A stretch of DNA of 64,000 nucleotides from Syntrophorhabdaceae bacterium (GCA_963665295.1 OY762209.1:3968001-4032000), one strand, 5' to 3'. Shown: positions 51,477 to 60,158, numbered from the stretch's first letter. Made by a program: numbers and translations. Notes: generated from the sequence alone by a model not told the origin.

Positions 51477-51491
51477 CGTTTTACACAATTA

Positions 51492-51585
51492 TGGCGGAGA
51501 GAGAGGGATTTGAACCCTCGGAACGCGTTTTAGCACGTTCACACGATTTCCAGTCGTGCTCCTTCAGCCGCTCGGACATCTCTCC
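51492..51585 (-). tRNA. tRNA-Ser(GGA)
   Basis: GGAGAGA acceptor stem, CACGA-CT GGA AA-TCGTG anticodon arm, long variable arm, GGTTCAAATCC, CCA end. Confidence 0.95.
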
Positions 51586-52157: not shown

Positions 52158-54905
52158 ATGATGAAGAGATGGTTGGTGTTGATGATCTTTTTGTTTCCCG
52201 CGTTCATAGCGGCAGTTGTCCCATCCCTTGCTGCAGACGCGCCTCCCACCGTGGTGGGTCGCGTCTACCATGTTGAAGGTGACCTGCTCCGTTACGTACC
52301 TGCGGAGAACGATTGGGTCGCCGTGGTCAAGGATGCGCCTTTTGGGACAGGTGACACCCTTTTTTCAGGCACCCAGGGCATGGCCGAGTTGATTGTCCCC
52401 AACGGTTCCTGGATCAGGACAGGATACAGCACTCAGGTGCAGTTTATTGCCCTTGACACGGAAGTCTCTGAAGCCGACGTCGCTTCAGGGGTATCCAGGT
52501 TCTACAACAAGGGCGCCAAGACGGTCGTAAAAACCACATGCCCTTTTGGCTACGTTCTTGCCTACCCCGGTTCAACATTCGATTTTTACGTGGGTGAAAA
52601 CTCCGTAGAAGTGATCGCAGTCAAGGGGACGGTCAGTTTCGTTCACTCATCCACTCAGGCAAAGTACGACATTTCAGCCGGATCTCCATCGCTTCTCGCC
52701 GATCAGAGTCAGGTATCATCGGGTGAAGGTGTTGTAGACCCTACCTGGGATCAATGGAACCAGTCCCGTGATGGTTTTTGGGCGGCAAAAGCCAGAGTGC
52801 GGGGCCGCTCCGTCGAATATCTCCCTCCCGCTCTTCGCGACGAGGCGTATGTACTTGAAGAAAACGGAAGATGGGAAACCGTGGTCTACGAAGGCAGGGA
52901 GCGCCGTTTCTGGCGACCCACCGTGGTTGACGCGGGATGGGCGCCCTACACCGCGGGACGTTGGACCGACTGGTACGGAGACCAGACATGGGTTCCCGCC
53001 GAGTCTTTCGGATATGTTACCCACCATTACGGTAACTGGGTGCGTGTGGGCCATAACTGGTACTGGGCACCGCCCGTAGTGGCGGTCAGGGCCGGTTTAC
53101 CGCTCCTCGACATAGGGTTTGCGTGGACTCCCGGGAGAGTGGCCTGGATTCACAGCGGATCGAATGTTGGTTGGGTACCTCTTGCGCCGAATGAGCCTTA
53201 CTATAGTCACCGCCACTGGGGAGGACGTCACGACGTGGTAATAAGCAGTTCAAGACCGGTCCATGTCAACGTCCGGAACTATGCCTATGTAAATCAGGCA
53301 GTGGTCGTCAACCAGACCAATTTCTACAACGTGAATAACTACCGCAATGTCCGTGTTACCAATATAAACCAGACAACCATCGTCAATAACTATACCGCTG
53401 CACCCGTTGTCAACAATACCGTCATAAACAACTACACCACAAACAAACAACGCTACAATTTCACTAACGTGGCAGTCAAGGAAAAGCCGCACAACAGCGT
53501 AATAAACCGAATTCAGCAGAACGAAAAAACCATTCATCAGGGTAAGCCTGTGACCGCCGCCGCACTCCAGCAGGAGGTCAAGAAGGTACGTGAGGGCCAG
53601 CCCAATCGTAACGCAAAGATCGAACAGCCCAAGAGTGCAAACTACATTGTACCCGCCAATCAGGTTAACCGCCCGAAATCGGAAATCAAGCTCCCCCAGA
53701 GAGAAATCAAGGGTGGGAGGCCTGGCGGTCAGCCGGGACAACCAGGTCAGGGACCTTCCGGTAAGCCGGGACAGCCTTCTCAGCCGGGACAGCAAGGTCA
53801 GGGACCTTCCGGTAAGCCGGGGCAGCCTGGTCAGCCAGGGCAGCCGGGACAGGGACCTTCCGGTAAGCCTGGTCAACCTGGTCAGATAACATCTCCGAGA
53901 CCCGGACAACCCGGGCAGCAGGGGCAACCTGTACAGCCGGGGCAGATAACATCTCCAAGGCCAGGACAGCCTTCTCAGCCAGGACAACCGGGACAGCAGG
54001 GTCAGATGGGTCAGCCTCAGAGACCGACTCAACCTGGTCAGATAACATCTCCGAGACCCGGACAACCCGGGCAGCAGGGGCAACCTGTACAGCCGGGGCA
54101 GATAACATCTCCAAGGCCAGGACAGCCTTCTCAGCCAGGACAACCGGGACAGCAAGGTCAGATAACATCTCCAAGACCCGGACAGCCTTCTCAGCCAGGA
54201 CAACCGGGACAGCAGGGTCAGATGGGTCAGCCTCAGAGACCGACTCAACCTGGTCAGATAACATCTCCGAGACCCGGACAACCCGGGCAGCAGGGGCAAC
54301 CTGTACAGCCGGGGCAGATAACATCTCCAAGGCCAGGACAGCCTTCTCAACCGGGGCAACCGGGACAGGTTACACCTCAAAGGCCCGGTCAGCCTGGGCA
54401 GGGACTTTCCGGTCAGCCGGGACAACCTTCTCAGCCGGGCCAAATTACACCTCCGAGACCCGGGCAGCAAGGTCAGATGGGTCAGCCCCAGAGACCGACT
54501 CAACCTGGTCAGCAGGGGCAGATGGGTCAGCCTCAGAGACCGACTCAACCTGGTCAGCAGGGGCAGATGGGAAGAACCGAATCTCCACAACCTGCTCCGA
54601 AGCCACAGCAGGTACAGCAGCCGAAACCAGCTCCACAGCCTGCTCCTCATGTTCAGCCTGCGCCACAGCCGAAACCGGCACCTCAACCGGCACCTAAGCC
54701 TCAACCAGCACCTCAACCTGCTCCGAAGCCTCAACCGGCGCCTCAACCGGCACCTAAGCCACAGCCGGCGCCACAGCCGAAACCGGCACCTCAACCTGCT
54801 CCGAAGCCACAGCAGGTACAGCAGCCGAAACCAGCTCCACAGCCTGCTCCGAAGCCTCAGCAGGCTGCGCCGGCAAAGCCGGGCCAACCCGGCCAGCCCC
54901 ACTGA
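52158..54905 (+). CDS. secreted FecR-like domain / Trp-Tyr-rich (DUF6600-like) protein with long Pro/Gln/Gly repeat tail
   Basis: AAGGAG RBS, signal peptide, GDTLFSG..GMAEL FecR-like start, W.P / W.PY..GRW / THHYGNW / VGWVPLAP block, Asn-rich segment, then PGQ and PQPAPK repeats. Confidence 0.8.
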   Translation: MMKRWLVLMIFLFPAFIAAVVPSLAADAPPTVVGRVYHVEGDLLRYVPAENDWVAVVKDAPFGTGDTLFSGTQGMAELIVPNGSWIRTGYSTQVQFIALDTEVSEADVASGVSRFYNKGAKTVVKTTCPFGYVLAYPGSTFDFYVGENSVEVIAVKGTVSFVHSSTQAKYDISAGSPSLLADQSQVSSGEGVVDPTWDQWNQSRDGFWAAKARVRGRSVEYLPPALRDEAYVLEENGRWETVVYEGRERRFWRPTVVDAGWAPYTAGRWTDWYGDQTWVPAESFGYVTHHYGNWVRVGHNWYWAPPVVAVRAGLPLLDIGFAWTPGRVAWIHSGSNVGWVPLAPNEPYYSHRHWGGRHDVVISSSRPVHVNVRNYAYVNQAVVVNQTNFYNVNNYRNVRVTNINQTTIVNNYTAAPVVNNTVINNYTTNKQRYNFTNVAVKEKPHNSVINRIQQNEKTIHQGKPVTAAALQQEVKKVREGQPNRNAKIEQPKSANYIVPANQVNRPKSEIKLPQREIKGGRPGGQPGQPGQGPSGKPGQPSQPGQQGQGPSGKPGQPGQPGQPGQGPSGKPGQPGQITSPRPGQPGQQGQPVQPGQITSPRPGQPSQPGQPGQQGQMGQPQRPTQPGQITSPRPGQPGQQGQPVQPGQITSPRPGQPSQPGQPGQQGQITSPRPGQPSQPGQPGQQGQMGQPQRPTQPGQITSPRPGQPGQQGQPVQPGQITSPRPGQPSQPGQPGQVTPQRPGQPGQGLSGQPGQPSQPGQITPPRPGQQGQMGQPQRPTQPGQQGQMGQPQRPTQPGQQGQMGRTESPQPAPKPQQVQQPKPAPQPAPHVQPAPQPKPAPQPAPKPQPAPQPAPKPQPAPQPAPKPQPAPQPKPAPQPAPKPQQVQQPKPAPQPAPKPQQAAPAKPGQPGQPH
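53720..54900 (+). repeat. intragenic tandem repeats encoding PGQPGQQGQ / QITSPR / PQPAPK units
   Basis: Near-identical blocks of about 100 bp starting at 53874, 54030 and 54246, plus many shorter codon-phased repeats. Confidence 0.9.
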
Positions 54906-55016
54906 CCAGGGGGCGTGACCGGCGTGCTTACCTCTCAACGGACAAAGCAGCCCGGGTTCGAAGAAACGGGCCCACGTGTTGTCGGCGGGGTTGAGGGGAT
55001 ATCGATTTGACAGTAA

Positions 55017-55051
55017 CCCCGGAGAGCAGGATTGACTCCTGCTCTCCGGGG
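55017..55051 (+). terminator. strong stem-loop after the FecR-like gene
   Basis: 15-bp perfect stem CCCCGGAGAGCAGGA / TCCTGCTCTCCGGGG with 5-nt loop. Confidence 0.55.
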
Positions 55052-55146: not shown

Positions 55147-55175
55147 TTGACACACTCTTCTTTACCCGATATCCT
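55147..55175 (+). promoter_or_regulatory. sigma70 promoter for the SpeE-like membrane gene
   Basis: TTGACA-N17-TATCCT. Confidence 0.6.
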
Positions 55176-55231: not shown

Positions 55232-57535
55232 ATGATGAATAAACGGAATATGTATCTCTTTACTTTCACCCTTCTCGCTATCGGTGTGGGAGGGATTATC
55301 GCCCAGACAGTGCTTCTCAGGGAGTTGCTTGTTGTCTTCGCGGGCAACGAGTTCTCTATCGGCATTATCATCGGATTTTGGGTAATCTGGGAGGCTGCGG
55401 GGGCCTATCTCGGTGGCCTCAAAGAGATGCAGTTGAGGACAGGCATAAGGTCGCTGGCCTGCCTTTCCGTTCTTTTTTCCGTATTTCTTCCCATCTCTAT
55501 CTATGGAGCCCGCACATTCAAAGTTCTCGCCGGCATACCCGTCGAGATAGGTGTCGGGCTCATACCCATCCTCTATACATCTTCCCTGGTACTGCTGCCC
55601 GTCGGGCTCATTCACGGATTCCTCTTCACTCTCGCATGTTCAATATGGGACCGGTTGACCGCCGAAGGGACACGATCCAGTGGAAAGGTTTACTTTTACG
55701 AGATGGTCGGCACTATTGCAGGCGGCATAATCGTGAACTTCCTTCTGGTGCCCCATTACCAGTCCTTTCAAATCGCCCTGTTGGTTGCCTGCTTCACCGC
55801 CGGTTCCTGTATCATTCTTCTCGTTTCTTTCTCCCGCCTGACTGAAAGCCCCGCCCTGGCCTTCAGCGCGGCAGTGATAATCTCCTCCGTTATCCTCCTT
55901 GCAGGAGGCGGCGCGGACCGTCTTCACCGCTTAGCCGTTGAGAGGCAATGGCAAGGCCGAAACGTGGTCTACTATGAAAACTCTGTCTATCAGAATATCG
56001 TGGTGACTCAAAGGGATGACCAATATACGTTTTTTTTGGACGCTCTATCCATTCTGACTGTTCCCGTCCCCGACATCGCCTTTGTGGAGGAATTCGTACA
56101 CTTCCCTATGCTTGTCCACCCCTTCCCGAAGAACGTGCTGGTCCTGGGAGGCGGCGCAGGAGGCGTGATAAACGAAATCCTGAAGCATCCATCAGTAAAA
56201 AGGATAGACTACGTGGAGATCGATCCCGCTTTTCTGAAGACGGTCATGCGGTTCTCGACACCCCTCACCACCCGGGAACTGAGCAATCCTCTCGTCCACC
56301 TCCACTTTCTCGATGGGCGAATGTTTCTCAAACGGGCCCTCCGTGGGTATGATGTTATCCTCCTCGGTGTGCAGCCTCCCCACACTCTTCAGCAAAACAG
56401 GTTCTTTACACAGGAATTTTTCGGGGATGTACAGAAAGCTCTTCGCAAGGGCGGTATTCTCGCCCTTACCATGACAGGGTCTCTTACCTACTACAGCACC
56501 GAATTGAAGGATCTCAATTCCTCCATCCTCGCGTCCCTGAAAGGGGTGTTCCCTCATACCTTCGTGGTCCCGGGCGACTCCAATCTCTTCCTTGCCTCAG
56601 GTTCTCCGACGGTTTCCTCAGTCTCTCCCATCCTTCTCTCCGACCGTCTGAAGACGAGAGACATTGCGACCAGTCTCATAAGCGGCACCCACCTCGCTCA
56701 TCGACTTCAACCGGAGAGAAGAGTATGGTTCTCCTCCCTCCTCGAAGGCCGGACAATTCCCGCAAACCATGATTTTTCACCTAAGGCCCTCTTCTACTAC
56801 ATAGCTTACCAGAATCTCCTCTTCTCTCCGTCCATAAGCCGGCTGTTCACCGCAGCAGAGGCAGTCCGGCCCCTCGGGGCAGCCTCATTCCTCGCCCTTC
56901 TGTTCCTTGCCTCTGCTCTGCTCCGCAGAACGTACTCACGTCTACCCGTCGCCTATGCGATCGGCACCACAGGCTTCACCGCCATGATAATGGAACTGGT
57001 TCTTCTATTCAGCTTCCAGGTGTTTTACGGATACATCTTCTATGAAATCGGTCTCCTTCTCACCCTGTTCATGGCCGGAATGGCAACAGGCGGCATCGTT
57101 GCCTCCGCTCCAGCCTTTCGGAAGGTATCGCCTGTGACATTGCTCACCTTCACCGACCTTTTTCTCGCCATCTTCGCCCTCATTCTTTCTCTCATCTTCC
57201 TTTCCTTCGGTTCCGCCTTCTTGTCGGGTTCCCCCTTGTCCTACCCTATCCTTCTTATTCTTCTTTTCGTCTCAGGTTTCCTGCCCGGCGCAGAGTTCCC
57301 CCTGGCCGCAATGGGGTATGCCCGCACCGTGAACGCGACTGAGGCCCGGACAGGAGACACCGTCGGAAGGACCGTCGGATTTCTCTATGGCGTGGATCTG
57401 GTCGGCGGTTGGATAGGAGGGCTGGTGGGAGGGTTTCTCCTCCTTCCCGTATTGGGACTCACTCAAAGCCTTCTTCTCCTTGTGGTTTTGAAGGCAGGCA
57501 GTCTTCTATTGTTGGCGACTTCTCCAAAAAAATAG
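55232..57535 (+). CDS. polytopic membrane protein with central spermidine-synthase-fold (SAM-binding) domain
   Basis: Two TM bundles flanking YQNIVV, EEFVHFPM..HP.PKNVLVLGGGAGG, VEIDP, DGR.F and FFT.EFF. Confidence 0.85.
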   Translation: MMNKRNMYLFTFTLLAIGVGGIIAQTVLLRELLVVFAGNEFSIGIIIGFWVIWEAAGAYLGGLKEMQLRTGIRSLACLSVLFSVFLPISIYGARTFKVLAGIPVEIGVGLIPILYTSSLVLLPVGLIHGFLFTLACSIWDRLTAEGTRSSGKVYFYEMVGTIAGGIIVNFLLVPHYQSFQIALLVACFTAGSCIILLVSFSRLTESPALAFSAAVIISSVILLAGGGADRLHRLAVERQWQGRNVVYYENSVYQNIVVTQRDDQYTFFLDALSILTVPVPDIAFVEEFVHFPMLVHPFPKNVLVLGGGAGGVINEILKHPSVKRIDYVEIDPAFLKTVMRFSTPLTTRELSNPLVHLHFLDGRMFLKRALRGYDVILLGVQPPHTLQQNRFFTQEFFGDVQKALRKGGILALTMTGSLTYYSTELKDLNSSILASLKGVFPHTFVVPGDSNLFLASGSPTVSSVSPILLSDRLKTRDIATSLISGTHLAHRLQPERRVWFSSLLEGRTIPANHDFSPKALFYYIAYQNLLFSPSISRLFTAAEAVRPLGAASFLALLFLASALLRRTYSRLPVAYAIGTTGFTAMIMELVLLFSFQVFYGYIFYEIGLLLTLFMAGMATGGIVASAPAFRKVSPVTLLTFTDLFLAIFALILSLIFLSFGSAFLSGSPLSYPILLILLFVSGFLPGAEFPLAAMGYARTVNATEARTGDTVGRTVGFLYGVDLVGGWIGGLVGGFLLLPVLGLTQSLLLLVVLKAGSLLLLATSPKK

Positions 57536-57541
57536 TATAAT
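57512..57541 (+). promoter_or_regulatory. possible internal sigma70 promoter for amrS
   Basis: TTGGCG-N18-TATAAT overlapping the upstream stop codon. Confidence 0.4.
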
Positions 57542-57561
57542 TCCCCTAAGGCGGCATACAC

Positions 57562-58674
57562 ATGCTGGGTAGAAGAGATTTCATAAAACTGGCGCTCCTC
57601 GCACCCCTGGCCCTGAAGGTCGACGCAAAAGTCTCCCTTCAGAAAGAAACTCCCCCTCTTCATGAAGCCCTTTACTACGAGAAGGTCGACGAAAAGAAAA
57701 AGGTCGTGGGGTGCCTTCTCTGCCCGAGGGCCTGTTCCATCCAGGACGGTGAGACAGGCTTCTGCCGCGCGAGAAAGAATATCCGGGGCAAGCTTTATTC
57801 CCTCGGATACGCCCAACCCTGTGCCATCCATGTCGACCCGGTGGAGAAGAAGCCCTTCTTCAACGTCCTGCCCCGGACCCTGAGCCTCTCTCTTGCCTGC
57901 GCCGGTTGCAATCTGAGGTGTAAGTTCTGCCAGAACTGGCAGATATCTCAAATCTCCCCCATGGAATCGAACAATTACCACCTTTCCCCGGGGAAACTAG
58001 TGGAGGCCGCAAAATCGAGCGGCTGCAAGAGCATTGCTTACACCTATACGGAACCGACCAATTTCTACGAGTATATGCTCGATACCGCGGTGATAGCCCG
58101 TTCACAGGGTATCCTTAACGTGCAGCACTCCAATGGGTATATCAACCCCGCCCCCCTTAAGGAACTATGCAAATACCTGGACGCTGCCAACATCGACCTC
58201 AAGGGGTTCAGTACCGCCTTCTACAACAAGATGTGCGAAGCGGAACTCGAACCCGTCCTTGAAACTATAAAGACCATGAAGAAATCCGGCGTATGGGTCG
58301 AGATCACGAATCTCGTCATCACCGGCCATAATGACGATCCCCGCATGATCAGCGCAATGTGTGAATGGGTAAAGCAGAATGTGGGGGCAGACGTGCCGGT
58401 TCACTTTTCACGGTTTTTCCCCATGTACAAGCTGACAGGAATCCAACCTACCCCTCTTCCGTCGCTGGAGCGGGCCCGCGAATGCGGGTTAAAGGCAGGC
58501 CTTCAGTTCGTCTATATCGGAAACGCACCCGGTAACCCGGGGGAAAACACCTATTGCCCGAAATGCAGGAAGGTTCTCGTCAGAAGATCAGGCTACAACA
58601 TACTCGATCTACATATAAGAAGCGGGAAATGCAGGTACTGTGGGGAAAAGATAGGAGGCCTATGGACGGCATGA
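57562..58674 (+). CDS. amrS: AmmeMemoRadiSAM system radical SAM enzyme with N-terminal Tat signal
   Basis: CLLCPRAC, DPVEKKP, GCNLRCKFCQNWQISQ, AYTYTEP, ANIDLK, HFSRFFP, YIGN and CPKC..CRYC; begins MLGRRDFIK. Confidence 0.92.
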   Translation: MLGRRDFIKLALLAPLALKVDAKVSLQKETPPLHEALYYEKVDEKKKVVGCLLCPRACSIQDGETGFCRARKNIRGKLYSLGYAQPCAIHVDPVEKKPFFNVLPRTLSLSLACAGCNLRCKFCQNWQISQISPMESNNYHLSPGKLVEAAKSSGCKSIAYTYTEPTNFYEYMLDTAVIARSQGILNVQHSNGYINPAPLKELCKYLDAANIDLKGFSTAFYNKMCEAELEPVLETIKTMKKSGVWVEITNLVITGHNDDPRMISAMCEWVKQNVGADVPVHFSRFFPMYKLTGIQPTPLPSLERARECGLKAGLQFVYIGNAPGNPGENTYCPKCRKVLVRRSGYNILDLHIRSGKCRYCGEKIGGLWTA

Positions 58675-60158
58675 CAAAATTCGCGACACCTTGTCTCAGG
58701 AGATCGGCCTTGGCCACCGCCATGGTCCTGATTCTGGCGCTGCACTTCCCGTTGACCGCAGCGCCCCAAAACACCACGACAACTGTGCGAAAAGCGTCTT
58801 TTGCGGGCTCCTTTTATCCGGCGGATAGAGCTACCCTCGACAAGAACGTTTCCGGCTATCTGAAGGCCGCCGAATCGAAGGGCAATCGCACTCCTGCCCC
58901 TATCATCGGCATCATTGCTCCCCATGCGGGATATCAGTACTCGGGAGGCGTTGCCGGGTCCGCATACAGTGCGTTGAAGGGCGGAGAGTACAAGACAGTC
59001 ATACTCCTGGGACCGAGCCACCAGACATGGTTCAAGGGTGTATCTGTCGACCTCCAAAGTGGATGGGAAACACCTCTCGGCATAGTCCCCGTGGACCACG
59101 AGACGGCGCGGACCCTCCTGGAGAGATGCAAATTCGCCAAACCCTACACCCCTGCCTTTCAACGCGAACATTCTCTTGAGGTCCAACTCCCCTTCCTCCA
59201 AAAGACCCTCGGAAAGTTCAAGATAGTGCCCCTCGCCACGGGGTCCATGGATGACGACGACTACGCGGCCCTCGCCTCGGTCCTCGCCTCCCTCGTGAAG
59301 GATCACCCCCGGAAGATTCTGATCGTGGCTTCCTCCGACATGTCCCACTATCACCCTTATGACCTCGCAAAGACCATGGACCGTCTTGCCCTCGCCGACA
59401 TGGAATCTCTTGATGTTCCCAAATTGACAGGCGATATACGGAAAGGGAAATGTGAACTCTGCGGGCTGCAGGCTGTGGTCACTCTTATCTCGGTTGCCCG
59501 GAGCCTCGGTGCCGAAGCTCATATTCTCAGTTACGCGAATTCGGGCGATGTGACGGGAGATAGAGACAGGGTTGTCGGATACGGGGCGATAGCCTTTTCC
59601 CTCCGGGAGGGAGACCACGGCCTCGACAAAAGAGAACAGGGGGTGCTCCTCAGTGTGGCCCGCAAGGCAGTTGAGGCGTCCGTCCTTGGGAAGCGCCTGC
59701 CACAACCGGACATAAAGGATTCGAAGCTGCAGGAGAAACGGGGTGCCTTTGTCACCCTTAGAAAGAAGGGTGACCTCAGGGGATGTGTGGGTTACGTGGC
59801 GCCCGTCCGCCCTTTATACGAAGCCGTATCCGAGATGGCCATGGCGGCATCGAGCCGGGACACTCGTTTTCGCCCGGTCTCCAGGGAGGAATTGAAGGAC
59901 ATCCATATAGAGATATCGGTGTTGAGCCCCATGAAGCCGGTTACCGACCCGACGGAAATCGAAGTGGGACGCCATGGTCTGTACATCACGCGGGGTGGGT
60001 TTTCGGGCCTCCTCCTCCCGCAGGTTGCCTCCGAGTATAGCTGGAACCGGGACGAGTTTTTAAGGCAGACGTGCATTAAAGCAGGACTCCCATCCAATTC
60101 CTGGAAAGAGAAAGGCACAAACGTCTACAGCTTCTCCGCGCAGATATTTTCCGAGTAG
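58671..60158 (+). CDS. amrB: fused AmmeMemoRadiSAM protein B (MEMO1) and protein A (AMMECR1) with signal peptide
   Basis: AGSFYP, PHAGYQYSG, GPSH, EHSLEVQLPFLQ and SSDMSHY; then GAFVTL, LRGCVG, IEISVLS, LLLPQVA and C.KAG; ATGA overlap with amrS. Confidence 0.92.
   Translation: MTKFATPCLRRSALATAMVLILALHFPLTAAPQNTTTTVRKASFAGSFYPADRATLDKNVSGYLKAAESKGNRTPAPIIGIIAPHAGYQYSGGVAGSAYSALKGGEYKTVILLGPSHQTWFKGVSVDLQSGWETPLGIVPVDHETARTLLERCKFAKPYTPAFQREHSLEVQLPFLQKTLGKFKIVPLATGSMDDDDYAALASVLASLVKDHPRKILIVASSDMSHYHPYDLAKTMDRLALADMESLDVPKLTGDIRKGKCELCGLQAVVTLISVARSLGAEAHILSYANSGDVTGDRDRVVGYGAIAFSLREGDHGLDKREQGVLLSVARKAVEASVLGKRLPQPDIKDSKLQEKRGAFVTLRKKGDLRGCVGYVAPVRPLYEAVSEMAMAASSRDTRFRPVSREELKDIHIEISVLSPMKPVTDPTEIEVGRHGLYITRGGFSGLLLPQVASEYSWNRDEFLRQTCIKAGLPSNSWKEKGTNVYSFSAQIFSE

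Follow-up and report, generated by a model that had tools for sequence, protein, structure and literature searches.

A putative envelope-located AmmeMemoRadiSAM module with a membrane protein that may supply SAM

A 64,000-nucleotide stretch of DNA from a Syntrophorhabdaceae bacterium (the window) carries three genes that are, on balance, probably best explained as an envelope copy of the AmmeMemoRadiSAM module. In this copy a radical SAM enzyme, AmrS, would be exported by Tat and a fused AmrB-A protein by Sec, and an MFS carrier would export SAM, which its degenerate outer domain would hand over. More tentatively, and with somewhat less than even confidence, we suggest that this 14-TM MFS/SpeE-fold protein is specialised in exporting SAM and acts as the dock at which radical SAM enzymes are loaded, permitting their chemistry outside the cytoplasm for at least two families (AmrS and PflX-like) across many anaerobic phyla and an archaeon, the enzymes entering either Tat-folded or by Sec with a CcdA-like protein, and some of them bearing a c-type heme. 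Radical SAM enzymes require SAM and low-potential electrons. Both are cytoplasmic, and the synthesis of SAM and reductant in that compartment is why the enzymes are generally placed there. An envelope location had been proposed as a possibility in a preliminary description of this DNA, and several indirect lines from sequence and structural models now support it.

Results

Gene organization

The three genes had been described as co-oriented and close-packed, and the same 26-bp gap and ATGA overlap were recovered here (Table 1); the database annotation of the gene 1 product gives 766 aa. The hairpin downstream of the DUF6600 gene is likely a terminator that parts that gene from the module, and thus a boundary element outside the system. 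At the other end, RNA folding did not support a terminator 3' of amrB-A (z -0.07). Neither the DUF6600 gene upstream nor the DUF523/DUF1722 and nitroreductase genes downstream recur in related loci, and all were therefore rejected as parts of the module.

Table 1. Features of the module and its surroundings, in window coordinates
Feature	Position	Strand	Details
Membrane-protein gene (gene 1)	55232-57535	+	767 aa counted from the first of two tandem ATGs
amrS	57562-58674	+	370 aa; 26-bp gap after gene 1
amrB-A	58671-60158	+	495 aa; ATGA overlap with amrS
Hairpin (likely terminator)	55011..55051	+	15-bp perfect stem, 3' of upstream DUF6600 gene; RNA fold -34.4 kcal/mol, z -5.1
Sigma70-like promoter candidate for the membrane gene	55147..55175	+	TTGACA-17-TATCCT; consensus scan, 10/12
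Internal promoter candidate for amrS-amrBA	57512..57541	+	Consensus scan; overlaps the membrane-gene stop codon

A caveat of the preliminary description, that amrS may have its own promoter, gained substance: the site was found by consensus scan, and its -10 element, TAGTATAAT, is conserved: 12 of 17 relatives have it no more than 70 nt ahead of amrS. In three of these 12, the membrane gene is 304, 1252 and 4725 nt away, and among relatives this gene is frequently found at another genomic place than amrS. Conservation of the element suggests that amrS is likely served by its own promoter, so a single operon for the three genes is not established.

A degenerate SpeE-fold domain on a predicted MFS carrier

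The gene 1 product matches PF01564 at residues 286-447, and its SpeE-fold domain matches 1uir in predicted structure (Foldseek E 4.7e-13; Z 30.3, rmsd 3.1, 291 aligned). When the spermidine-synthase motif positions were assigned via alignment to B. subtilis SpeE, the Asp of GGGDG proved to be replaced by Ala (A309) in 114/145 rows, and the catalytic Asp of the DSxxP loop by Gly (G379) in 116/145 and by Asn in 17/145. Following SpeE/putrescine methyltransferase logic, the D-to-A change in GGGDG would let SAM itself in. The adenosyl-binding residues are kept (E329 in 144 of the 145 rows, D361 in 145/145), and E286, N389 and R390 near the SAM pocket are invariant.

Scores against the equivalog models TIGR00417, PRK00811 and PRK03612 lie under the cut-offs (109.5 vs 249.55, 118.9 vs 260 and 166.7 vs 472, respectively). 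NF037959 gives 41.6 for the window protein against a cut-off of 40 and 68.6 for one homolog, and is absent from another homolog's matches. Databases label membrane proteins of this type spermidine or spermine synthase, and ESM Atlas returned PF01564 clusters only, with automatic names; we reject a true spermidine synthase identity because both catalytic-site aspartates are lost and the scores fall below the equivalog cut-offs. The lipid N-methyltransferase OlsG was also dropped as an analogue, since PMC12971839 places it with the phospholipid N-methyltransferases.

The AF2 model built on the 145-row alignment (pLDDT 93.7, pTM 0.94) was the only one used, the single-sequence fold having a pLDDT of 39.7. 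It predicts 14 TM helices, of which TM1-6 and TM9-14 would form an MFS fold; two extra helices would bear the SpeE-fold domain (about residues 225-545) on the outer face, outside the cytoplasm. K/R counts (positive-inside) follow an alternating pattern in each half, and by them too the domain lies outside. Over the whole chain, the predicted model matches VMAT2 (Z 26.4, rmsd 3.9, 353 aligned) and SotB (Z 24.8, rmsd 4.0, 354 aligned); Z exceeds 19 for dozens of MFS chains. The two halves are homologous by profile comparison (98.6%, E 7e-16), and plain BLAST of one half against the other returned no significant match. Conserved acidic residues sit in symmetric helices of the carrier cavity (E31/E588 and E157/D722); the MFS fold alone does not name the solute, and a polyamine would fit an acidic cavity too. 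The predicted 14-TM architecture, together with the PF01564 and SpeE-fold matches, bears out the earlier reading of a polytopic membrane protein with a SAM-binding fold.

The membrane gene tracks leader-bearing radical SAM enzymes

Among 60 relatives, the membrane gene was present in all 37 genomes with a leader-clade AmrS and in 5 of the 23 others. It lies within 5 kb of the leader-clade AmrS on one contig in 35/37 genomes, and was near none of the 20 leaderless AmrS loci examined. In three of the five membrane-gene genomes without a leader-clade AmrS, there is a radical SAM enzyme with a twin-arginine leader that belongs to another, PflX-like family; this family shares about 23-25% identity with AmrS. 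Across phyla, 70 of 75 genomes with a leader-bearing AmrS hold the membrane gene. From the other gene's side, 47 of 80 metagenome loci with the membrane gene have an AmrS-like (32) or PflX-like (15) neighbour; 43 of these neighbours have a leader by our scoring, the other 4 being truncated or fragments. The proposed association of Tat-positive AmrS with the membrane gene thus held from both genes' sides. Since the PflX-like loci yielded no amrB-A, what the membrane protein appears to track is export of a radical SAM enzyme rather than the substrate of the Amr system.

There are exceptions. One genome that is 99% complete (G006) has a twin-arginine PflX-like enzyme without the membrane gene. 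Two others (G003 and G005) have the membrane gene, and neither an AmrS nor a PflX-like partner was found in them; another exported partner may lie among their 104 radical SAM matches. At one locus (L071) the membrane gene adjoins an AmrS without an in-frame leader.

A predicted AmrS-membrane protein complex

Complex prediction, which the preliminary description had suggested, docked AmrS on the outer domain of the membrane protein with a score of 0.84, the best of three controls (the leaderless paralog not among them) scoring 0.00. Of 157 solved complexes 116 attain the score mark, as do 2 of 215 mismatched pairs, figures that apply roughly to our prediction, made with its own alignments. The runs share at least 82% of contacts, with a partner pLDDT of at least 92. 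In the model, the mouth of the AmrS active site is contacted by the E286 region at the SAM-pocket rim and by the loop S417-Y420. The loop docks at the peptide-binding place of PFL-activase, so part of the passing score may reflect likeness to that solved family. A search for a clade-specific interface found one of the 28 leader-vs-leaderless AmrS positions among the 36 interface residues; the predicted interface is not specific to the leader-bearing clade.

The earlier account had offered two roles for the membrane protein, supplying or sensing SAM, or handling a lipid or periplasmic substrate. SAM supply is now favoured, and a specific lipid or other substrate less so, because the membrane gene also partners a radical SAM family that lacks amrB-A. 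The main competing explanation sees the outer domain as a working enzyme in the envelope, a methyl or 3-amino-3-carboxypropyl transferase that uses SAM, fed by its own MFS part and acting on a lipid or periplasmic substrate in a pathway shared with AmrS and AmrB-A. The SpeE fold is wholly retained, the changed GGGDG would by the methyltransferase logic admit SAM, and the three invariant residues by the pocket could make a new active site. However, both acceptor-side aspartates are gone, the gene has partners from two radical SAM families, one of them without amrB-A, and AmrS covers the pocket rim in the model; we therefore regard an active transferase as unlikely.

Alternatively, the membrane protein may mainly clear or sense products (5'-deoxyadenosine, methionine, MTA, SAH) or plug AmrS to regulate it, with SAM arriving otherwise. 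E329 and D361 read the adenosine part, which is common to the products, the S417-Y420 loop would reach into the active-site mouth of AmrS, and an unrelated carrier exchanges SAM and SAH (PMC3104491). Yet such a role would leave the supply of SAM unexplained, no other transporter recurs among the neighbours, and it would merge with SAM export and handover if the carrier were an antiporter. As a separate explanation we find it decidedly improbable.

Both enzymes carry putative export leaders

AmrS matches PF04055 and TIGR04337 (358.1 bits vs a cut-off of 220). Its CxxxCxxC (C116/C120/C123) is invariant in 114 rows, and it bears extra Cys motifs at the N- and C-terminal ends. Leaders were scored throughout with motif and hydropathy scripts. 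The AmrS N-terminus reads G-R-R-D-F-I-K, followed by a short hydrophobic stretch, and was judged against the Tat consensus Z-R-R-x-hydrophobic-hydrophobic as stated in PMC13673990; the residue preceding the RR pair is G, versus S/T. A strict RRxF[LI] within the first 45 residues occurs in 87 of 114 aligned AmrS homologs, and a relaxed twin-arginine motif in 102/114; among this genome's 2682 long frames, 24 have the strict form. The genome of the window AmrS (G000) has two TatC matches. The Tat motif previously noted for the radical SAM enzyme is therefore present, as RRDFI, and conserved across homologs, which suggests that AmrS is likely exported by Tat.

In AmrB-A, PF01875 and PF01871 domains are fused in one protein, with TIGR04336 at 278.8 vs 26 bits and TIGR04335 at 189.2 vs 99 bits. 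The Memo part is conserved (H85, H117 and C264 in 54/55 rows, D223 and H226 in 55/55), as is the LRGCxG cysteine of the AMMECR1 part (C372, 55/55 rows); these residues would serve as ligands or as nucleophile. A single N-terminal hydrophobic stretch spans residues 13-31, and such a region is present in 54 of the 55 rows (the window protein and 54 homologs). Its RR pair departs from the Tat consensus, and the leader is likely Sec-type. Both domains and the conserved leader agree with the MEMO1-AMMECR1 fusion with a signal peptide described before. The same genome holds a separate, leaderless Amr set (C1:5263113-5264126 and 4521326-4522752). In a quick tree, 25 of 26 leaderless AmrS form their own branch (support 99); the root is unsure, so leader-bearing AmrS may have arisen more than once.

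Across phyla, AmrS changes from one leader type to the other, Tat or Sec, at least 4-6 times on the tree. TatC is present in 31 of 32 twin-arginine genomes and also in 11 of 43 Sec-type genomes; it was not found in 33 genomes, 32 of which carry a Sec-type leader, and these absences come from small MAGs whose completeness is not stated. Of the 43 Sec-type loci, 31 hold a CcdA/DsbD-like gene with conserved Cys, vs none of the 32 Tat-type loci. Since kin are not independent, Fisher values, which take no account of kinship, were set aside and phylogeny-aware pair tests were run, both of them non-significant and underpowered: Sec leader against the CcdA-like gene gave 4 pairs, none opposite on average (p 0.25), and Sec leader against absence of TatC gave 2 pairs (p 1). 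Several Tat leaders are followed by a lipobox-like Cys, and both metagenome AmrS with a CxxCH insert (n=2) adjoin cytochrome c maturation genes (ResB/CcsA).

These observations bear on the possibility that the leaders are inward-facing membrane tethers or relics and that the module works at the cytoplasmic face, as the canonical system does. SAM and low-potential electrons are cytoplasmic, the window's Tat leader is short, and in the periplasm-linked HXS system the radical SAM enzyme has no signal, a cytoplasmic site of action being proposed for it (PMC13128918). Against this stand the excess of the strict motif over background, the repeated Tat/Sec switches, the lipobox-like Cys, the CxxCH inserts beside ResB/CcsA genes and the predicted outward topology of the docking domain, and we consider non-export very improbable.

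The closest solved relative of AmrS is PFL-activating enzyme (3c8f, 3cb8; E 2.5e-11). AmrS as a glycyl-radical enzyme activase was nevertheless rejected: its PFLA activase score is 43.6 vs a cut-off of 231.75, the docked loop has no conserved Gly, and no glycyl-radical partner gene recurs among amrS neighbours. That AmrS instead modifies the membrane protein's own loop as its substrate is hardly credible, for although this kinship, the loop's modelled position in the active-site mouth and the retention of Y420 in 26/31 diverse rows would fit, the residue that faces the active site, 419, is variable (N, D, A, S or T) but not Gly, G416 is kept in 12/31 rows only, and the transporter and SAM pocket would be left unexplained.

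Discussion

In the envelope module that we favour, the genome's single, leaderless MetK would make SAM inside the cytoplasm, and the carrier cavity with its four conserved acidic residues would export the SAM cation, perhaps swapping it for spent adenosyl products. The outer domain would bind SAM, not decarboxylated SAM, and pass it to docked AmrS. Reduction of AmrS would follow a lineage-dependent route; no electron donor gene was found within the module of this window. In Tat lineages the radical SAM enzyme would cross already folded. In Sec lineages it would cross unfolded, and a CcdA-like pipe for thiol reductant may allow cluster assembly outside; in some lineages the enzyme's own c-type heme may serve electron entry. 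AmrS, together with the metal site of the Memo part and the cysteine of AMMECR1, would then act on a substrate in the envelope. This is the weakest step; the substrate seems likelier to be a small molecule, a lipid or an exported protein than a nucleic-acid base.

To our knowledge, the Memo/AMMECR1/radical-SAM module has no known reaction, and its human members are linked to disease. Burroughs and colleagues are said to have linked Memo to base and isoprenoid modification. An envelope copy with the same catalytic residues would argue that the module need not act on a nucleic acid. If the proposal is true, radical SAM chemistry would gain a new compartment through exported enzymes that are furnished with SAM of their own, and membrane proteins of a class whose present annotation is spermidine synthase would receive their first function. 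An exported copy beside an intact cytoplasmic copy would also make possible a clean comparison of periplasm and lipids. A literature search, whose coverage excluded Burroughs et al. 2019 and its supplements, which may list this gene context, returned no account of AmmeMemoRadiSAM enzymes being exported and none of a SAM exporter of the MFS type.

Comparison with known systems

Like MFS carriers (top fold matches VMAT2, SotB, FLVCR and NarK), the membrane protein is predicted to have 6+6 helices, homologous halves and symmetric acidic residues; unlike them, it carries a 320-residue SAM-binding-fold insert via two extra helices, at an identity of 11-14%. With SpeE and the fused MFS/spermidine synthases (NF037959, PRK03612) it shares the SpeE fold. 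It differs from them in having lost the dcSAM-selecting and catalytic Asp, in scoring far below the SpeE equivalog cut-offs and in having two full MFS halves and a tie to exported radical SAM enzymes. The Chlamydia SAM/SAH transporter CTL843 (PMC3104491) sets a precedent for a bacterial carrier that swaps SAM for spent product.

PFL-activating enzyme, unlike AmrS as proposed here, is cytoplasmic and acts on a Gly of a glycyl-radical enzyme. The HXS anti-phage system resembles the present one in tying a radical SAM enzyme to a periplasmic function; there the signal peptide lies on the substrate HxsA only (PMC13128918), whereas here the enzyme itself bears a signal. Among the closest systems is AmmeMemoRadiSam (TIGR04335 AmrA, TIGR04336 AmrB, TIGR04337 AmrS; eukaryotic AMMECR1 and MEMO1): all three components score above cut-offs and the window proteins keep the conserved Cys, His and Asp residues. 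The window's module departs from the canonical form in that both polypeptides carry leaders, B and A are fused and a predicted 14-TM partner is added.

Organization of the module and predicted fold of its membrane protein

The layout given in the preliminary description, three tightly spaced genes on one strand, proved correct: the membrane gene is followed after a 26-bp gap by amrS, encoding a radical SAM enzyme, which overlaps by an ATGA the fused amrB-A gene for Memo (AmrB) and AMMECR1 (AmrA). Far from the window set, the genome has a second amrS and, apart from it, an amrB, amrA pair, all without leaders; the window set is therefore an extra copy. The closest named relatives are Syntrophorhabdaceae, so that the host would probably be an anaerobe belonging to this family. 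Window 52158-54905 encodes a secreted protein of the DUF6600 family whose Pro/Gln/Gly repeat tail is very long, followed by a strong 15-bp hairpin; in relatives, this gene shows no link to the module. A tRNA-like gene, called by eye, starts at window 51491-51580, between dnaX and the DUF6600 gene.

Coordinates of the module genes and of recurrent features in related loci
Feature	Location	Strand	Description
Gene 1, membrane gene	55232-57535	+	Spermidine-synthase domain flanked by two hydrophobic blocks
Gene 2, amrS	57562-58674	+	TIGR04337, 358 vs cut-off 220 bits
Gene 3, amrB-A	58671-60158	+	AmrB and AmrA fused, each above cut-off
PflX-like enzyme beside membrane gene, without amrB-A	L084:8935-10080, L085:5094-6209, L086:5053-6138, L145:3772-4848, L168:8304-9389 and 14 other metagenome loci		Tat or Sec leaders
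DsbD_2/CcdA-like gene	L053:10439-11161, L009:2540-3175 and 30 other genome loci; L212, L220		GPCxxxC and PC motifs
AmrS with CxxCH insert	L090:5439-6746 to L097; L204:6749-8845; L227:1520-2794		Insert after Tat leader
Tat-signal DUF362 / NapH-like membrane polyferredoxin	L165:3409-5892, L218:5462-6535, L225:11110-14267, L174:7727-8929, L212:4659-5438		Near module

A confident model of the membrane protein built from 145 aligned rows (pLDDT 93.7, pTM 0.94) predicts a soluble domain surrounded by 14 membrane helices. Over the whole chain, the predicted helices match the MFS carriers VMAT2 (Z 26.4, rmsd 3.9, 353 aligned) and SotB (Z 24.8, rmsd 4.0, 354 aligned), and the predicted soluble domain matches SpeE (Z 30.3, rmsd 3.1, 291 aligned). 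Helices 1-6 and the last six are homologous (98.6%, E 7e-16), with conserved acidic residues at equivalent places in the two halves (E31/E588, Y154-E157/Y719-D722). Mean K/R per loop alternates in the C-terminal half (2.8, 0.1, 3.7, 1.2, 2.8, 0.2, 2.2) and is 0.2 and 2.6 in the two loops preceding the soluble domain, the first four loops being less clear; the patterns of both halves therefore orient that domain outward.

Relative to B. subtilis SpeE, the GGGDG aspartate is replaced by A in 114 of the 145 rows and the catalytic aspartate by G or N in 133, and E329 and D361 are kept in 144 and 145 rows, respectively. With both aspartates lost, the protein is not a spermidine synthase; from established SpeE chemistry, the domain would be expected to bind SAM or another adenosyl compound related to it, with no catalysis on polyamines. 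That this domain is an active transferase at the outer face is doubtful, and is the best surviving alternative to SAM export and hand-off to an exported radical SAM enzyme, the reading that we somewhat favor. The window's genome also encodes, at C1:4339047-4340687, another and shorter membrane protein that contains a SpeE-like domain and differs in domain order; relatives without the module have a comparable gene (about 520 aa).

The membrane gene accompanies leader-bearing radical SAM enzymes of two families

Co-occurrence with the membrane gene, proposed earlier as a test for Tat-positive AmrS, was upheld for leader-bearing AmrS across 60 relatives. Leader-type AmrS was present in 37 (26 matched across the leader, two split or broken, and nine of a longer type, whose leader was read directly in eight and inferred in one). 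The membrane gene is present in every one of the 37 (in 35 on the same contig, within 5 kb), vs 5 of the 23 relatives lacking leader-type AmrS; these counts, like those below, contain kin and cannot be taken as independent. Of the five, G018, G039 and G042 encode a radical SAM enzyme with a twin-arginine leader that belongs to a distant family and shares about 23-25% identity with AmrS; we take the family to be PflX-like, and no name for it was found in NCBIfam. The gene for this enzyme is next to the membrane gene in G039, G042 and a second locus of G044. In genomes G003 and G005 the membrane gene is present and neither an AmrS-type nor a PflX-like partner was found; G006 has a PflX-like enzyme and no membrane gene, and G037 and G046 retain module remnants only. 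The decayed modules (L125:6519-8117 in G046; L126:6019-7901 in G037) have signal-bearing amrB-A alone or beside a 57-residue membrane-gene remnant, amrS being gone. No membrane gene was found near leaderless AmrS at 20 loci with flanks of up to 4 kb (20 of roughly twice as many matches).

A wider set of 80 genome loci, chosen by AmrS similarity, spans Syntrophorhabdaceae, Geobacter, Bacteroidales, Ignavibacteria, Omnitrophota, Elusimicrobia, Zixibacteria and one archaeon. Leaders, classed by motif, hydropathy and eye, were of twin-arginine type in 32, Sec-type hydrophobic in 43, absent in 3 and cut at contig ends in 2. The locus itself contains the membrane gene in 34 cases, and 38 of the 46 others have it at another place in the genome (two as fragments). 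Of the 75 cases with a leader, 70 are thus accompanied by the membrane gene, and the five without it are MAGs of 0.8-1.2 Mb. Conversely, 47 of 80 metagenome loci of the membrane gene had an AmrS-like (32) or PflX-like (15) neighbor, classed by script as twin-arginine-like (41), hydrophobic (2) or cut (4), with RRxF in all 15 PflX-like enzymes. Many of the other 33 have short flanks, and about a dozen with long flanks showed housekeeping neighbors only. In four further genomes (L145-L148) the membrane gene is paired with a PflX-like enzyme bearing a Sec-type leader. In several PflX-like enzymes, a lipobox-like Cys closes the Tat leader.

That the membrane gene tracks two families of exported radical SAM enzymes, of which one lacks amrB-A, is the strongest discriminator between the explanations. 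A membrane protein serving product clearance or regulation is improbable.

Export leaders and indirect signs of envelope location

The predicted leaders of AmrS and AmrB-A are real sequence features. A strict RRxF[LI] (Tat consensus as in PMC13673990) lies near the N-terminus of 87/114 aligned AmrS vs 24/2682 long frames of the window's genome, and AmrB-A has a hydrophobic N-region in 54/55 rows, with His/Asp/Cys residues kept. In a quick tree of AmrS cores with leaders removed and an uncertain root, 25 of 26 leaderless AmrS fall on one branch (support 99), and Tat and Sec types are mixed across the other side, with 4 to 6 switches. One AmrS adjoining the membrane gene (L071:6806-7783) has a shortened N-terminus and no in-frame leader, possibly a split enzyme or an exception. 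In two Bacteroidota/Ignavibacteria loci, the neighborhood of the module includes another Memo-like gene, divergent in sequence, whose product has a signal-like N-terminus (L068:606-1685, L075:13280-14434).

TatC was found in 31/32 genomes with twin-arginine AmrS vs 11/43 with Sec-type AmrS, genome completeness not being given. A membrane gene of DsbD_2/CcdA-like type, its cysteines conserved, occurs at 31/43 Sec-type vs 0/32 Tat-type loci, and beside both anchor-type AmrS (L212, L220); AmrS exported unfolded would need its cysteines held reduced outside. One weak match to DsbD_2 is present elsewhere in the window's genome. Independent-pair tests, which are underpowered, gave p 0.25 (4 pairs) for Sec leaders with the DsbD_2/CcdA-like gene and p 1 (2 pairs) for Sec leaders with absence of TatC.

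Nine in-frame leader-bearing AmrS contain a CxxCH insert, and the two from metagenomes (L204, L227) adjoin ResB, L227 also CcsA. Attachment of c-type heme takes place outside the cytoplasm; the insert and these neighbors suggest that a radical SAM enzyme may carry such a heme. Genes for NapH-like polyferredoxins and for DUF362 proteins with a Tat signal, candidate electron routes, recur in some module loci, and none lies in the window. The single MetK of the window's genome has no leader. Taken alone, an envelope location is highly probable; a system facing the cytoplasm is very unlikely.

Predicted docking of AmrS

Folding the outer domain (222-548) together with AmrS (30-370) gave a complex score of 0.84, vs 0.00 for the best of three controls, the leaderless paralog not being among them. 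This mark was attained by 116/157 solved complexes and 2/215 mismatched pairs, a calibration that holds only roughly with our own alignments. Runs share at least 82% of contacts, with partner pLDDT of at least 92. Loop S417-Y420 is predicted to contact AmrS C87-H90, A112, Q127-I128 and Y162, adjoining the cluster motif, and the E286 region to contact P323. The model supports binding of AmrS to the outer domain, and the likeness of AmrS to the PFL-activase family may contribute to the score. Only 1 of 28 clade-separating AmrS positions falls within the predicted 36-residue interface, which is thus not particular to the exported clade. That the loop near the cluster motif is itself the AmrS substrate is scarcely credible.

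Transcription of amrS

The caution that amrS may have its own promoter was justified: both the window and 12/17 relatives have TAGTATAAT at most 70 nt upstream of amrS, and in three of these relatives the end of the membrane gene is 304 to 4725 nt away from amrS. As judged from these sites, amrS-amrBA is likely served by its own promoter; its bond with the membrane gene is one of co-retention. At L003, L001 and L098 the -10 element is just 6-8 nt ahead of the amrS start codon, and the mRNA would therefore be leaderless there.

Proposed mechanism and relation to known systems

In SAM export and hand-off, which we hold to be slightly better than an even prospect, the MFS carrier part would transport SAM outward, the catalytically degenerate SpeE-fold domain would hold it, and the docked radical SAM enzyme would receive it from this domain; AmrS, Memo and AMMECR1 might then act on some envelope substrate.

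No description of the system was found in the literature, an earlier mention in the Memo-family literature being possible; PMC7159879 touches on Memo-Ammecr1 systems in passing. The leader-bearing module is a real, conserved form of the known but unexplained AmmeMemoRadiSam system: its enzymes belong to the same families and, unlike the canonical form, bear leaders. In its predicted model the membrane protein, possibly a new kind of transporter, shares the folds of both MFS carriers and SpeE but fails the catalytic features of SpeE.
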